Positions 1 to 3,399 of a stretch of 7,350 bases of DNA are shown piece after piece; position 1 is the stretch's first letter; each line of letters starts with the position of its first letter. The translations under genes and the position numbers were made by a program. The DNA is from Escherichia coli (GTDB taxonomy: Bacteria; Pseudomonadota; Gammaproteobacteria; Enterobacterales; Enterobacteriaceae): the NCBI RefSeq assembly GCF_003334385.1, contig NZ_QOWN01000072.1. One strand, written 5' to 3'. Under the pieces are notes generated by a model. It was given only the letters and a program-made list of their open reading frames with translations. It searched no databases and was not told where the DNA came from.

Positions 1-149
1 GCCGGATAATGTTCCAGGAATTGCCAGTGAAATTTTGCGCGGGCGCGACGTTCATCACCGGCTTCAATGGCAGTGGCCACCGCAACAGCGCTATCTTCTT
101 TTATGGCCTGTTCGTCAGGAATAGCAGCGCAAATAAAGATTTTACTCAT
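1..149 (-). CDS. hypothetical protein, 5' end only (gene continues leftward beyond the window)
   Basis: Minus-strand ATG at 149..147 with GAGG about 10 nt upstream (plus 'cctc' 160-163). Translation MSKIFICAAIPDEQAIKEDSAVAVATAIEAGDERRARAKFHWQFLEHYP stays open to the window edge. Not in the ORF track because it is partial and under 60 aa. No family recognised. Confidence 0.45.
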   Translation of the reverse strand, partial: MSKIFICAAIPDEQAIKEDSAVAVATAIEAGDERRARAKFHWQFLEHYP

Positions 150-244
150 TGTGTTTTAACCTCATTACAGATTTCAGGGTGAACGAATCCCTGCCATTGC
201 TGGCATTTTTAATCCGTTGGTATGGCGTTAATATGGCTGGCGGG

Positions 245-433
245 TTATCCAGCCGGTATTTCGTTATTCAGGTTCAGCGATACTTTTTTTAACGGGAGGC
301 ATTCACCGGGGATTTTTTGTTCGTCCCTTACCTGAATGCAGGATGACTTACTGTCATAAATTCCGGTAATCACATTTTGTGGCTCACCCGTTATAAGAAA
401 AACGGTCATCACCAGTGCAAATGCTGAAGTCAC
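245..433 (-). CDS. small hypothetical protein (62 aa), second gene of a leftward two-gene unit
   Basis: ORF track 245..433 (-). GTG start at 433..431 overlaps the upstream stop (GTGA), with GGAG 7 nt upstream. Alternative ATG start at 409 has no SD. No family recognised; position matches the small kilR/ydaE-type genes left of sieB in Rac-like prophages (inference only). Confidence 0.45.
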   Translation of the reverse strand: MTSAFALVMTVFLITGEPQNVITGIYDSKSSCIQVRDEQKIPGECLPLKKVSLNLNNEIPAG

Positions 434-618
434 TGCTGTTCTCCGATAATACCAAGTTCAAGAAGGGCAATTCTGGAAAGTATGGAATTATCATTGAGAA
501 GATAAGGTTCATATTTTCTCATCTTAATGGCATCTTCCGTAAACTCCCGGTTACTGAGCAGAACACCAATATCAAAACAACCTTCAGACGTATTAACGTT
601 TGGTAATAACGTTTCCAT
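430..618 (-). CDS. small hypothetical protein (62 aa)
   Basis: ORF track 430..618 (-). ATG at 618..616 preceded by GAGGA (plus 626-630 complement) at about 7 nt spacing. Amino-acid composition is more protein-like than the overlapping plus-strand ORFs 415..606 and 527..730. No family recognised. Confidence 0.5.
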   Translation of the reverse strand: METLLPNVNTSEGCFDIGVLLSNREFTEDAIKMRKYEPYLLNDNSILSRIALLELGIIGEQQ

Positions 619-636
619 TATCGCGTCCTCAACAAT

Positions 637-795
637 GAATTTTGTGATGCGGTGCCTGGTGCCTCCAGGTGACGTTAACCAGTTAACAATTAACGCCGGA
701 ATACAGAAGGATGCCCGTTACGCCCCGTAAAAGACCACTTTACGGTTTTAACTGTTCCGCGTGCGCATAGCCGCATTCACCGCATCACAAAATTC
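637..795. repeat. 18-bp perfect inverted repeat (arms 637-654 and 778-795) bounding a 123-bp segment rich in nested dyads
   Basis: Left arm gaattttgtgatgcggtg (637-654) is the exact reverse complement of right arm caccgcatcacaaaattc (778-795). The interior holds CCTGG-N5-CCAGG (656-670), three TTAAC repeats (675-694) and a CCGTAAA-N7-TTTACGG hairpin (724-744) followed by TTTTAA. Confidence 0.8.
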
Positions 796-1094
796 ACTTT
801 AAAAAGGGTGGCAGAGCAGTCACGGAGTAGAACTGATGCCACCAAATACTACACATGGGTATTGTGGCGGGGCTGTCACTTAAGCGTATGGTCAACCTGA
901 CGACCCGGTGCATTTTCTGGAGCAATGGAGGAAGCCCCAGCCATACTTACCGCCGCGCCATTTCGCGGACTGCCACAACCGGAAGTGCACGGTCGAAGAA
1001 ATTTAACGACAAGCCTTATATGCAAAGGAATCTCGCCGTGCGCTTTCGTGTTGTGTGCCTGCTTTTAACCACGTCAGGCGAGGTGGTTTCCGTC

Positions 1095-1123
1095 ATTCCC
1101 CAATAACAGGAAATCTGTATAAT
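1095..1123 (+). promoter_or_regulatory. candidate sigma70 promoter with extended -10 (TGTATAAT) for the rightward 1157/1322 genes
   Basis: TGTATAAT at 1116-1123, about 34 nt upstream of the ATG at 1157. No convincing -35 (attccc at 1095-1100). Sequence pattern only. Confidence 0.3.
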
Positions 1124-1156
1124 CTGGATATCCCCAACAACAGGAAGGTGTTTTAT

Positions 1157-1315
1157 ATGGTGGTTCAAAAGAATTGTTCAGGTACTGGTAAGCCTGCGGA
1201 CAGGGCGGACATTCCGAATACCAGGAAACATATACCTGAGAAAAACATTCGACCAAAACCATCTCCAGCTCCTTCAGAGGAGAGGGGGAACAGCAACAAT
1301 CAAACAAGCAGGTGA
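1157..1315 (+). CDS. small hydrophilic ORF (52 aa), possible leader or small protein upstream of the membrane-protein gene
   Basis: ATG at 1157 with AGGAAGG SD (1142-1148) at 8-nt spacing, directly downstream of the TGTATAAT element. Translation MVVQKNCSGTGKPADRADIPNTRKHIPEKNIRPKPSPAPSEERGNSNNQTSR is low complexity. Its stop lies 6 nt before the 1322 start. Confidence 0.3.
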   Translation: MVVQKNCSGTGKPADRADIPNTRKHIPEKNIRPKPSPAPSEERGNSNNQTSR

Positions 1316-1321
1316 TGATAT

Positions 1322-1768
1322 ATGGACCGGGATGATATTCTTGACAGGGTTTTATATGGTTATTTTCTTGAACAACTATTCTCTGTAGCGACTGGTCGTC
1401 TCGATAAACTTTTCTCAGTGGTGAGTATTATCCTCGGTTCATCTGTCATTGGTGGATTTATTCCTGAAGTTTCTGGAGTTCTCATTGTTGTGATAGCAAC
1501 CGTTCAAACGATTTACGGATTCGGACAAAAGTCAGGTAACGCAATGAGAAAATCCGCAGAATATCTGCAGCTTTATGATGATGCAGAAAAATATTCCGAT
1601 TCGGAATTGAAAATGCAGTTAAAGCTCCTGGAAAAAACAGATGATAATATTTGGTCGTCGCTTAAAGATATCGCAATCTTAAAAACCCAGATCAAAATAG
1701 GAATCTCCGTAGAACAACAAGAGAAACTGTCTGCAAAATCCAAATTGATGCGATTCCTTTGTGGTTAG
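1322..1768 (+). CDS. membrane protein with two predicted TM helices; SieB-like superinfection-exclusion protein by position and topology
   Basis: ORF track 1322..1768 (148 aa). Hydrophobic hairpin LFSVVSIILGSSVIGGFIPEVSGVLIVVIATVQTIYGF followed by a charged, coiled C-terminus. Transcribed opposite to the neighbouring early genes, as sieB is in Rac. AGGTGA lies 10 nt upstream of the ATG. Family assignment is not verified. Confidence 0.6.
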   Translation: MDRDDILDRVLYGYFLEQLFSVATGRLDKLFSVVSIILGSSVIGGFIPEVSGVLIVVIATVQTIYGFGQKSGNAMRKSAEYLQLYDDAEKYSDSELKMQLKLLEKTDDNIWSSLKDIAILKTQIKIGISVEQQEKLSAKSKLMRFLCG

Positions 1769-1866
1769 GAATACCCAGATTGTTAAAGAGCATGCCGAAT
1801 GCTTACCCGTGTCCGGCGAACGTATTCCACTTCGCCTGTGGAGAACTCTTTAATTACTAACCTTCA

Positions 1867-2100
1867 TCAGTCAGAGTTTCTTGCTAACCAGCGACGCGCG
1901 CCAGCTTCCGTTTTAAACGTTTTGCTTCTGGTATACGTCATCGCGGTAAACGTGCCGTCCAGGTTGGGGAATACTCCACATACCAGAGATTCGCTGTTGC
2001 CAAGATCGATAGTATCCATGTTGACCTCATTTCCCCTTAACGCCGGGGTAGCGGAACAAAAACCTGCTGCATAGTTATTAAAGTTGAACCCTGCCGTCAT
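1867..2100 (-). CDS. hypothetical protein (77 aa), first gene downstream of the pL-like promoter
   Basis: ORF track 1867..2100 (-). ATG at 2100..2098 with GAGG about 9 nt upstream. Translation MTAGFNFNNYAAGFCSATPALRGNEVNMDTIDLGNSESLVCGVFPNLDGTFTAMTYTRSKTFKTEAGARRWLARNSD. Not arginine-rich like lambda N; no family recognised. Confidence 0.55.
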   Translation of the reverse strand: MTAGFNFNNYAAGFCSATPALRGNEVNMDTIDLGNSESLVCGVFPNLDGTFTAMTYTRSKTFKTEAGARRWLARNSD

Positions 2101-2292: not shown

Positions 2293-2583
2293 TTAACAGC
2301 TTTTGTTTGGATACTGCCTTCGTGAGTGAACTACATTTACGATCTCGATGTTAGATGCTGTTACTCGGTAAAGTATTATGTAGTTAGGATGGGTCACTAT
2401 CTCACGAAGGCCTAGAGCTCTTTCGCTTGGTGGATACAGGTAAGGGTGTTCAGTAAGTGACAAAACTGATGTTTCAATGCGTATTTTTAGTCTACGTGCA
2501 GCGGGAGGGTTTTCCTTGGCAATATAGGCTACGATCTGACGCAAATCATCACGCGCAGAAGGTAGCCATAAAATGGGCAGCAT
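2293..2583 (-). CDS. parE: type II toxin, RelE/ParE family (ParE-like), 96 aa
   Basis: ORF track 2293..2583 (-). Translation MLPILWLPSARDDLRQIVAYIAKENPPAARRLKIRIETSVLSLTEHPYLYPPSE...GLREIVTHPNYIILYRVTASNIEIVNVVHSRRQYP matches the ParE/RelE pattern from memory. Its ATG overlaps the antitoxin stop (TAATG). Resembles parE of the prophage paaR-paaA-parE systems; paralog number cannot be determined. Confidence 0.85.
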   Translation of the reverse strand: MLPILWLPSARDDLRQIVAYIAKENPPAARRLKIRIETSVLSLTEHPYLYPPSERALGLREIVTHPNYIILYRVTASNIEIVNVVHSRRQYPNKSC

Positions 2584-2774
2584 TACTCACTCCTGTTCGT
2601 CGAAGCTATTTGCGCAATAAGGTTTTCCATTTCAGCCATTACTTCGTCATGCGGAATTGCAGGACGGGGGTCTGCGAGGCTTGCTGCCACTTTGGTGCGT
2701 AACCATTCGTTATAGCTGTTTTCTTGTTCGATTGTTTCAAATTCTGAAATTATCGGGGAAAGGACTGTACTCAT
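2583..2774 (-). CDS. paaA: small antitoxin (63 aa), PaaA-like partner of the ParE toxin
   Basis: ORF track 2583..2774 (-). Lies immediately upstream of, and is translationally coupled to, the ParE-family toxin. GAGGAGG SD 7 nt before the ATG at 2774. Acidic 63-aa protein, the size I recall for PaaA2. Assignment rests on context and length, not a search. Confidence 0.7.
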   Translation of the reverse strand: MSTVLSPIISEFETIEQENSYNEWLRTKVAASLADPRPAIPHDEVMAEMENLIAQIASTNRSE

Positions 2775-2791: not shown

Positions 2792-3292
2792 TTAGGCGCG
2801 ACGACCTTTTTGCGCCTCTAGCCACCGCGCAACGGTTTCTTCAATTGATTCTTTTTTCTCCTTCATTTCCTTAAGCATTTTCTCTTTGTCTTCTTTTGGG
2901 AAAGCCCTGAACGTCTGGATCAAATCTCGCTCTATAGGTTCTATATTAAACGGAAGTTCGTTTTCCGATTGTTCCATCTCTGCGGGTAAAGCGACAACAT
3001 TATCCTGCTGCAGTTCTTGGGGGTACATCCTTACAATTCGTAACAAGTCTGCCATATCTGGTCTAATTGACTCAGGCGGAACTTGTAGCAACCCAGCGAA
3101 CTTGATAACAGCCTCTAGATTTAAAGGTGTCTGACCATTTAGATAATGGCTTACTGCCCCTTGTGTCGAAAAACCCAGAATTTCTGCCGCACGCTCTTGG
3201 GTTAACCCAAGTTGAGTTTTTTTCGTCGTCCAGATTTCTTTCAGTCTCTGGGCGGCTTGCAGGTCGATCTCTGACAGGGGTTTTCTTTTCAT
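2792..3292 (-). CDS. paaR: HTH (XRE/Cro-CI family) transcriptional repressor, 166 aa; candidate prophage immunity repressor and regulator of the toxin-antitoxin operon (PaaR/RacR-like)
   Basis: ORF track 2792..3292 (-). N-terminal HTH LGLTQERAAEILGFSTQGAVSHYLNG. No LexA/S24 peptidase-like C-terminus. Divergent from the ydaS/ydaT pair across an operator-containing spacer. Stop lies 17 nt before the antitoxin start. Confidence 0.85.
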   Translation of the reverse strand: MKRKPLSEIDLQAAQRLKEIWTTKKTQLGLTQERAAEILGFSTQGAVSHYLNGQTPLNLEAVIKFAGLLQVPPESIRPDMADLLRIVRMYPQELQQDNVVALPAEMEQSENELPFNIEPIERDLIQTFRAFPKEDKEKMLKEMKEKKESIEETVARWLEAQKGRRA

Positions 3293-3399
3293 ACCTTCAA
3301 TTCTAATAAGATTATTAATCTCTTTGAAATAGCGGTGCTATTTACCTTTAAAAATAACAATGCTATTAATATTCATGGTCACATAACATGAGGTGAACA
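3293..3399. promoter_or_regulatory. OR-like divergent promoter-operator region between the repressor and ydaS
   Basis: Operator 1 aatagcggtgctatt (3328-3342) and operator 2 aataacaatgctatt (3353-3367), centres 25 bp apart. Rightward pR-like promoter: -35 TTTACC (3341-3346), 17-nt spacer, -10 TATTAA (3364-3369). The leftward repressor promoter could not be placed; GAAGG abuts the repressor ATG, so the mRNA may be short-leadered. Confidence 0.5.

Follow-up and report, generated by a model that had tools for sequence, protein, structure and literature searches.

What does a pair of small genes do when it is transcribed against the early-left operon of a lambdoid prophage? The question is raised by a 7350-bp stretch of Escherichia coli DNA (assembly GCF_003334385.1, contig NZ_QOWN01000072.1; the whole stretch is referred to below as the window), which is a lambdoid prophage immunity and early region. 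Its plus strand carries, at ~1056-1793, an inserted module (moron) of ~740 bp composed of a 5′ hairpin, a promoter region, a gene for a micro-protein of 52 amino acids (aa) and a gene for a 148-aa protein with two transmembrane (TM) helices. A preliminary description of this DNA had proposed a lysogen-expressed superinfection-exclusion or abortive-infection cassette resembling SieB. We consider it very probable that the module has the anatomy given here and that its larger product is a SLATT-like protein. Judged by analogy with known systems, a lysogen-expressed role in phage exclusion or abortive infection is the most likely one.

The 148-aa protein has a predicted SLATT-like fold

The larger gene (1322-1768, plus strand; product WP_000373333.1) is preceded by the Shine-Dalgarno (SD) sequence AGGTGA (1310-1315), which overlaps the stop codon of the micro-protein gene, and it starts 6 nt later. 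The two TM helices reported previously for its product were confirmed at residues ~30-47 and ~50-67. They are connected by the loop IPEVSG, and the flanking positive charges fit a hairpin with both termini in the cytoplasm, in agreement with the AlphaFold model. AlphaFold2, supplied with a 66-sequence alignment, predicted an all-helical protein (predicted local distance difference test, pLDDT, 87; predicted template modelling score, pTM, 0.75) with helices at residues 3-44, 48-65, 67-86, 93-105, 113-126 and 138-147. Foldseek searches against AFDB50 gave full-length matches to stand-alone SLATT 2TM proteins (TM-score of at least 0.9, E values to 1e-7), and the automatic UniRef name of the exact sequence is ‘SLATT domain-containing protein’. 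The modelling strongly supports a stand-alone SLATT 2TM fold, in which an inner-membrane hairpin is followed by a cytoplasmic, helical C-terminal half.

An exhaustive HMMER scan of 1.8 billion cluster representatives identified 87 relatives (at 50% clustering), mostly of 145-175 aa. Seven residues are near-invariant in the 66-sequence alignment (R26, G39, Y81, L84, D107, A118 and G148), and five of them (R26, Y81, L84, D107 and A118) are placed in the cytoplasm. The match of the window protein to NCBIfam SLATT_4 is weak (E 0.014, 15.2 bits vs cutoff 55). A weak SLATT_4 hit was the top match for 6 of 11 members, i.e. the window protein and 5 of 10 further relatives (14-19 bits among the relatives). 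Pfam returned no match for the 148-aa protein even at E<=10, and in a Pfam scan of the 66 relatives only one reached E 0.095 to SLATT_fungal. The protein also matches PHROG 6315, a family of unassigned function (E 6e-24). Among solved structures, a hidden Markov model (HMM) search and Foldseek against the PDB yielded nothing meaningful, and no match at E<1e-3 was found among the viral predicted structures of BFVD. The sole constant neighbour of the SLATT-like gene in the inspected neighbourhoods is the micro-protein open reading frame (micro-ORF).

A conserved micro-protein gene precedes the membrane protein gene

The micro-protein gene (1157-1315, plus strand) encodes a basic, proline-rich product (MVVQKNCSGTGKPADRADIPNTRKHIPEKNIRPKPSPAPSEERGNSNNQTSR). 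It is the strongly SD-led, hydrophilic 52-aa ORF of the preliminary description, and our analysis agrees with that account: the SD GGAAGGTG (1143-1150) lies 6 nt before the ATG at 1157, and the product has an isoelectric point of 10.2 and lacks a hydrophobic segment. The gene ends in a tandem TGA-TGA (1313-1318, with the second in-frame TGA at 1316-1318). A read-through fusion of the two ORFs was considered and rejected: they share a frame here but are separated by the tandem stop, and the gaps at other loci are not multiples of three.

We distinguished ~17 divergent micro-protein variants of 26-52 aa upstream of family members, paired with large proteins sharing 27-100% identity with that of the window. 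Their common core, (D/K)-H-x-P ... (R/K)-xx-P-rich, is followed by a basic tail. Designating the compared loci by L numbers, the variants include ...RKHIPEKDIRTVTPPPPPPPPVTREEGK (L003), ...REHIPEKNVRPTPPPPVPTKSDSAEKK (L002), ...RKHMPEKDIRPTPAPPPEEKEKGKEQK (L004), ...NDHMPSRLIKTPPPPPP.K.GG.GKK (L006 and L050-L057), MSNDKGYREDHMPPKLPPKPLPKPSQTSTPKK (L008), MNAPKPDAHKPINERPVPPPKPQRKS (L059/L060), MSEDRKDYHRIHRPAPAEQAPPKQQQQPTEEQDKK (L061/L062), MNAAGKDSGNKPNTSQPSRKEQRDHTSNHKVEPPKKRPGQS (L063), MLKVNYASQGDIVPNHLNPKPIRPTPPPPSTPSDGGKK (Providencia phage PSTNGR2lys) and ...GDSMPKG...TPTPPPPTNTSNRGKPKQ (phage EKP1). The core histidine is invariant in a 14-sequence alignment; the later Providencia phage copy keeps it, and EKP1 has serine. 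In all loci the SD of the large gene lies at or over the micro-ORF stop, which is 6-24 nt from the large-gene ATG, and lineages with sufficient sampling all have a small hydrophilic ORF directly before the large gene. Counts of micro-ORF substitutions by codon position (111/65/152 and 97/74/226) show a third-position excess, which fits a coding sequence. Judged by this conservation, the small ORF is a real, conserved partner gene of the SLATT-like gene.

The exact window peptide is absent from a 15-billion-protein collection, and the micro-protein has no PHROG, PADLOC or NCBIfam match. A profile search found ~ten relatives, present as sporadic gene calls labelled ‘hypothetical’. Disorder is predicted for the micro-protein, which has no known antitoxin fold. 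In a linker-fused co-fold, its residues 31-40 reached a pLDDT of 78, with 44-58 for the surrounding residues, and the C-terminal helices of the SLATT-like protein gained in confidence; these are per-residue confidences that carry no claim of contacts, and the support that the co-fold lends to the pairing is only suggestive. Runs of 3-8 prolines occur in 8 of ~15 variants. The window peptide contains RPKPSPAPS and no PPP run, so polyproline stalling was dropped as a universal feature and kept only as part of a minor rival explanation.

Natural variation was sampled in 45 IMG/VR loci, the counts of which are not independent. All 37 loci with a micro-ORF core have an intact large ORF. In the other eight (L035-L037, L043-L046 and L049) the core has been deleted between CAAGCAGGTG direct repeats, ~100 nt upstream of the large ORF, and three of these carry a truncated large ORF (68 or 119 aa). 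Taken with the loci that retain the large ORF alone (see below), the pattern is suggestive of two genes working as a unit and of a membrane protein that is not lethal by itself. A decayed cassette was also seen in an E. coli prophage (L005 4650-5450). It has frameshifts in the micro-ORF and at the start of the large ORF, and the 148-aa product called there is a chimera.

The module is a discrete insertion

The closest comparison for the insertion is the dicBF operon of the K-12 Qin prophage, which was examined by blastn and alignment. Homology to K-12 Qin comprises window positions 1-1066 (75% identity), 1795-1864 (86%) and ydfA (88%). In the ydfC-dicF spacer, ~30 bp of K-12 Qin stand in place of ~730 bp of the window. 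The genes ydfB and ydfC, located between ydfA and the spacer in K-12 Qin, are missing from the window (1067-1794 compared with L058 4666-5042). Across loci with unrelated left flanks, conservation starts abruptly at TGCCTGC (window 1056). The G+C content is 0.41 for the module and 0.38 for the SLATT-like ORF, compared with 0.46-0.47 for the flanks and 0.49 for the whole window. We delimit the moron as ~1056-1793 on the basis of the insertion relative to K-12, the sharp edge and the low G+C content. These comparisons strongly support the view that the unit is a discrete, low-GC mobile insertion lying antisense in the repressor-controlled, dicBF-type early-left operon.

Of the features expected of a moron, discrete insertion and deviating base composition are thus present, and the module occupies other sites in other phages. 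The fold of the segment that follows the SLATT-like gene (1766-1875) is unremarkable (z -0.97). Non-coding conservation at 858-1066 was considered as a possible novel element and discarded, as it corresponds to the ydfC-dicF spacer (DicF precursor) common to K-12 Qin. Among 5426 complete E. coli genomes, 91 carry the cassette, in every case on the chromosome. E. coli G1/2 has a 100% identical copy of the 901 bp around the cassette next to different immunity genes (racR/ydaS/ydaT type), which shows mosaic exchange in this region.

The putative promoter region and its conserved elements

The putative cassette promoter, TGTATAAT (1116-1123, plus strand), consists of TG and a perfect -10 hexamer of the sigma-70 type, TATAAT (1118-1123). 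This is the sole perfect TATAAT on either strand of the window. A lone TATAAT within 7 kb is not above chance, so the case for a promoter rests on conservation of the hexamer. Orthologous modules carry it at the equivalent position even though their large proteins share only 43-65% identity with that of the window, and the loci that preserve TATAAT are L003, L006, L050-L053, L057 and L064. The site had previously been called an extended -10. The perfect hexamer stands, and the canonical extended form does not, as TGNTATAAT has 0 matches in the window; the TG abuts the hexamer directly, one base off the canonical TGnTATAAT, and we have dropped the label. The canonical TGGTATAAT is present in locus L003. 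The proposal of a self-contained cassette with its own promoter agrees with this conserved promoter-like region, in which a perfect -10 is combined with a weak -35.

The -10 is bracketed by two 15-bp direct repeats (CCCCAAyAACAGGAA; box 1 CCCCAAY...), 34 bp apart on the plus strand. Box 1, CCCCAATAACAGGAA (1098-1112), overlaps the -35-like element, while box 2, CCCCAACAACAGGAA (1132-1146), occupies ~+1 to +15 of the predicted transcript and runs into the SD. Both boxes are conserved at 12 or more loci; they differ between loci and co-vary within a locus (identity 9.9/13 within vs 8.4/13 between; permutation p 0.00035, for loci that are not independent). This pairing pattern looks as if a factor particular to each locus recognised the boxes, or as if gene conversion had made them alike.

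A conserved hairpin, AACCAC / loop GTCAGGCGAG / GTGGTT (1067-1088, plus strand), is located at the 5′ edge of the module. Its stem covaries, with AACCTCA/TGAGGTT in the Providencia phage (L064), GGCGCG/CGCTCC in L055 and CTAC/GTAG in L002, and the loop sequence TCAGGC is kept across loci. Thermodynamically the hairpin is unremarkable (z -0.55). Thirteen loci, that of the Providencia phage among them, share the upstream order GCCTG, hairpin, box 1, TATAAT, box 2, SD, ATG. The predicted 5′ untranslated region is less stably folded than shuffled sequences (z +1.4). The GCCTG segment (1057-1061) is complementary to CAGGC in the loop (1075-1079), which might allow an alternative or H-type pseudoknot pairing. 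Across loci one compensatory change (L050) stands against two mismatching loci (L052 and L053), and we keep the pseudoknot as an idea that we do not claim.

Distribution among temperate phages

Of 12 distinct contexts, 11 have the module antisense to the genes on its flanks, and every context examined belongs either to the regulatory or early region of a temperate phage or to a known slot for morons. The contexts comprise E. coli Rac/Qin-like prophages, a Salmonella P2/186-like region with Cox, YdaS-type immunity regions, a lambda-like N/cI/cro/cII region (L008), CI-S24 regions with RdgC or Bro, P2-like regions with GPA, CI and integrase, and another integrase and CI-S24 element. In an isolated temperate Providencia phage the module lies between the cI side and bet, and both genes are annotated. 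In phage EKP1 (L065 2347-2941) it is placed between a Q-like antiterminator gene and a holin gene, with the micro-ORF present and the module antisense. The relative in a P22/E217-like element (L007 4001-4471) is located beside arc/ant, after ejection and SLT genes; it has no micro-ORF and is oriented like its left neighbours. We take its arc/ant-side position to be the region of sieA on the P22 map. The slots listed are classic places for lysogenic-conversion or exclusion genes. These comparisons strongly support joint movement of the two genes among highly divergent phages.

Relationship to SieB

The position and orientation of the cassette resemble those of sieB, and the preliminary description had extended this resemblance to the protein family. 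The slot and the antisense orientation hold up, while the family identity does not. Lambda sieB (NC_001416) is located directly downstream of N on the opposite strand. The L008 gene, which encodes a relative of 34% identity, lies directly after the N-peptide gene, beside cI/cro/cII, and both this locus and the window share the early-left location with transcription opposite to pL. A family of lambda SieB (NC_001416) homologues, all with PF14163, was collected and aligned, and the new family profile was compared with it by hhalign, which gave a probability of 0.3% over 21 columns. The Pfam SieB model matched neither the window protein (no Pfam hit at E<=10, as above) nor any of the 66 relatives. 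The earlier account had itself made the family claim depend on SieB similarity; with none found, the claim falls.

The gene sieB of P22 has an in-frame internal start that gives the self-immunity product Esc. The internal methionines of the window protein (75, 98 and 143) are not conserved in the family alignment, so an Esc-like product is not expected. True membership in the SieB family (lambda, P22, Rac), with SieB-like action, would account for the slot and orientation shared with lambda sieB and for a small protein with two N-terminal TM helices. The Pfam, hhalign and BFVD searches are all negative, the window protein, at 148 aa, is shorter than lambda SieB (184 aa) and the relatives of the latter (179-191 aa), and the Esc-like start is missing. 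We regard membership as scarcely credible. The remaining likeness to SieB (lambda, P22, Rac; PF14163) is that of a small two-TM protein encoded antisense in the early-left slot and probably expressed in the lysogen, and by analogy with the SieB phenotype (PMC10883804) abortion of superinfecting phages is plausible. In sequence, profile and predicted fold no relationship was detected. The window gene differs further from lambda sieB in having an upstream partner gene.

Proposed mechanism and alternative explanations

SLATT proteins act as effectors or accessories of CBASS, DRT10/UG17, DRT3 and RADAR (PMC9226505; bioRxiv 10.64898/2026.04.29.721553), and SLATT effectors are thought to oligomerise and damage the membrane (PMC9226505; PMC9122126; bioRxiv 10.64898/2026.04.29.721553). 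Transmembrane proteins of prophages are typically suicide effectors (PMC9122126). By analogy with these systems, the cassette would be expressed in the lysogen from its own promoter, as a bicistronic message encoding the micro-protein and then the SLATT-like inner-membrane protein. When a superinfecting phage is sensed, the SLATT-like protein would oligomerise and permeabilise or depolarise the inner membrane, so that the infection is aborted or excluded. The micro-protein would be an obligate partner, a gatekeeper or a sensor, rather than a classical essential antitoxin, and upon induction convergent transcription from pL would damp the cassette.

For the composite of a two-gene moron, a membrane-permeabilising function in abortive infection or exclusion and the micro-protein as obligate partner, the case is in our judgement evenly balanced, and for defence by membrane damage as the function it falls a little short of even. 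More tentatively, the elements may be joined into an undescribed, self-contained two-component exclusion system, in which a disordered, basic, proline-rich peptide is the sensor or gate for a membrane pore, the hairpin and direct repeats form the promoter architecture, and the antisense placement is part of the trigger. Incoming or induced phage transcription would then alter the output of the cassette. We think it doubtful that all of these elements hold together.

Several observations weigh against a two-gene defence module with a SLATT effector. No curated SLATT HMM threshold is passed (15 bits vs 55, and none in Pfam), so that the assignment draws on predicted-structure similarity and the automatic UniRef name. 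PADLOC-DB 2.0 contained no defence family matching either protein at E<=1, and no sensor gene (SMODS, SLOG, TIR, reverse transcriptase, RADAR) was present in the ~14 neighbourhoods inspected. The 148-aa ORF is intact in five of the eight deletion loci, so the micro-protein may be a dispensable partner; the loci of that sample are, moreover, mutually related. As to autonomous expression, the -35-like TTCCCC (1096-1101) is weak (3/6 consensus, 16-nt spacer), so the site is not listed by a consensus promoter scan, and L002 and L004 have a degenerate -10 (GCTAAT/GTTAAT). No terminator of its own could be assigned to the module, since no plus-strand terminator-like site was found between 745 and 3196.

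Instead of killing the cell, the protein might exclude superinfecting phages by obstructing DNA entry at the inner membrane, as do P22 SieA, T4 Imm and HK97 gp15, its target being the injection machinery or a receptor in that membrane. The small size and inner-membrane location of the protein, the place of its gene in a prophage moron slot and the lack of a linked sensor enzyme would suit this role. The same can be said of the L007 relative beside arc/ant, presumably the P22 sieA region, and of the loci that keep the large ORF without a micro-ORF, where the protein seems to be tolerated alone. Its fold, however, matches SLATT effectors and no known injection blocker, the periplasmic loop of ~4-6 residues offers little surface for contact with a tail or ejection-protein conduit, and the conserved residues are cytoplasmic. 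For SieA, one inner-membrane protein is enough to block injection (PMC10883804). On balance, an injection block seems rather unlikely for the window protein. The apparently tolerated large ORF of the five deletion loci bears in a different way on a toxin-antitoxin addiction module, in which the SLATT-like protein would be a membrane toxin and the micro-protein a labile antitoxin, together stabilising the prophage. SLATT genes can be toxic (PMC9226505), the layout is that of two translationally coupled genes with the small one first, and the same immunity region holds a RelBE-like pair. Yet the large ORF is intact in those loci without the micro-ORF core, and the micro-protein is predicted to be disordered, with no known antitoxin fold, which leaves addiction improbable.

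Two further alternatives concern expression. The small ORF could be only a leader that provides translational coupling or proline stalling dependent on elongation factor P, its peptide being functionless. A stop codon that overlaps the SD of the next gene or lies against it, as at all loci, and the proline runs (3-8) of about half of the variants, would be expected of such a leader. They are set against a window version that has no PPP run, the non-proline (D/K)-H-x-P kept across divergent variants, the conserved composition of the basic tail, and a co-fold of moderate confidence at residues 31-40. We consider the leader explanation less probable than an injection block, although somewhat more so than addiction. 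Finally, instead of defence the cassette might serve the regulation of the prophage itself, its convergent promoter damping leaky expression of the toxic dicF/dicB from pL in lysogens, or serve lysis, the membrane protein acting in lytic growth. In favour of this are the location of the insert, with pL on one side and dicF/dicB on the other, and the toxicity and layered control of the dicBF operon (PMC10448788); as no terminator follows the large gene, transcription of the cassette should continue into ydfA in antisense, in the direction of pL. But the module is also found in phages without dicF/dicB and in other operons (P2-like early region, Q-holin junction), and a protein pair under purifying selection would not be needed for mere promoter interference; this explanation appears to us as improbable as addiction.

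Comparison with known systems and significance

The window protein shares with the SLATT superfamily (2015 families SLATT_1-6, DUF4231) an N-terminal helix leading into a two-helix membrane hairpin, cytoplasmic C-terminal helices, and a gene on mobile elements in a conflict context. It differs in passing no curated HMM and in having, instead of a linked nucleotide cyclase, SLOG, TIR or reverse transcriptase, a micro-protein partner. The window module is also set apart as an antisense moron within phage operons. Lambda RexA/RexB and other two-component abortive systems with a membrane effector, among them the recently described PANGU type II, are alike in layout only, with a soluble partner and a membrane effector in the prophage immunity region. 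PANGU type II combines a small nucleoid-associated sensor protein with a TM effector (bioRxiv 10.64898/2026.04.06.716658), and like the window it has a small basic partner just upstream of the TM effector. Compared with RexA or the nucleoid-associated partner, the window micro-protein is far smaller and predicted to be disordered, so that the likeness is one of layout alone. Phage morons in the Juhala/Hendrix sense (e.g. HK97 gp15) have in common with the module a discrete insert, lower G+C content, a promoter-like element and varied sites. The window unit departs from them in having two genes, no recognisable terminator, and a conserved 5′ hairpin with direct repeats.

The automatic SLATT label, SLATT effectors and morons in the sieB slot are already known. 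As far as we searched (PADLOC, PHROGs, NCBIfam, Pfam and full-text literature), the pairing with a proline-rich micro-protein, the absence of a sensor enzyme, the promoter architecture of hairpin and direct repeats, and the systematic antisense placement are not described. SLATT proteins have so far been understood as effectors slaved to enzymes that produce nucleotide or DNA signals, and how a SLATT protein is switched on is an open question (bioRxiv 10.64898/2026.04.29.721553). The module is, from sequence and model, a good candidate for a minimal SLATT system. If this is true, a stand-alone SLATT-like protein with a micro-protein would be the smallest such system and a tractable model of SLATT gating. 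A widespread, unannotated micro-protein gene is added to the prophages of E. coli, Salmonella, Proteus, Providencia and Arsenophonus, and the lambdoid sieB slot emerges as a swap site for unrelated membrane-protein cassettes. As the E. coli insert lies between pL and the toxic dicF/dicB, it may also affect their expression. Should the cassette have no phage phenotype, it would be an ordinary moron of unassigned function.

The surrounding immunity and early-left region

The prophage genes around the cassette are organised on both sides of a DicA/CI-like repressor gene (2792-3292, minus strand). Rightward of it are cro-like and cII-like genes, followed by replication genes. The putative leftward promoter pL is TTTACA (2225-2220)-17-TATTGT (2202-2197) on the minus strand, as identified by promoter scan. 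It is overlapped by the operator-like palindromes AATAGCACTGCTATT (2199-2213) and AATAGTAATGCTATT (2224-2238). The palindrome AATAGCnnTGCTATT is present in four copies, two over the pL candidate and two in the repressor-cro gap (3328-3367), and the pairs have an identical 25-bp spacing at both places. We take the minus-strand site at 2225-2197 and these palindromes as pL with its operators.

The leftward operon opens with a DUF1391/YdfA-like gene that converges on the cassette (1867-2100, minus strand; PHROG 751, E 8e-44). Its RefSeq label is ‘DUF1391 family protein’ and its DNA is 88% identical to K-12 ydfA. It is followed, beyond the cassette, by the small RNA DicF (806-857, minus strand; Rfam RF00039, full length, 62 bits vs a gathering threshold of 48, E 4e-12) and by dicB, encoding a cell division inhibitor (430-618, minus strand; NCBIfam CellDivInhibDicB, 111 bits vs cutoff 100, in agreement with RefSeq). 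A DUF1482 gene comes next in the leftward order. In K-12, DicF and DicB derive from a single DicA-repressed polycistronic transcript (PMC10448788), so the leftward transcript must here cross the cassette in antisense. The antisense placement proposed earlier is thus borne out by the architecture, in which the pL candidate, YdfA, DicF and DicB are all on the minus strand.

Between the repressor gene and pL, in the slot of lambda rexAB, there is a RelB/RelE-like pair. It is composed of a RelB antitoxin gene (2583-2774, minus strand; 92 bits) and a RelE/StbE-like toxin gene (2293-2583, minus strand; 26.9 bits, slightly below the cutoff of 27.9), and is followed by a strong intrinsic terminator (2278-2261, minus strand). 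Two weak terminator-like hairpins of the minus strand (1554-1570 and 1593-1607) lie inside the 148-aa ORF, and the leftward transcript must traverse them before reaching dicF and dicB. A sub-threshold match to Rfam STnc100 (586-808, minus strand; 36.8 bits vs gathering 47, E 2e-5) covers the interval between DicF and dicB together with the first part of dicB.

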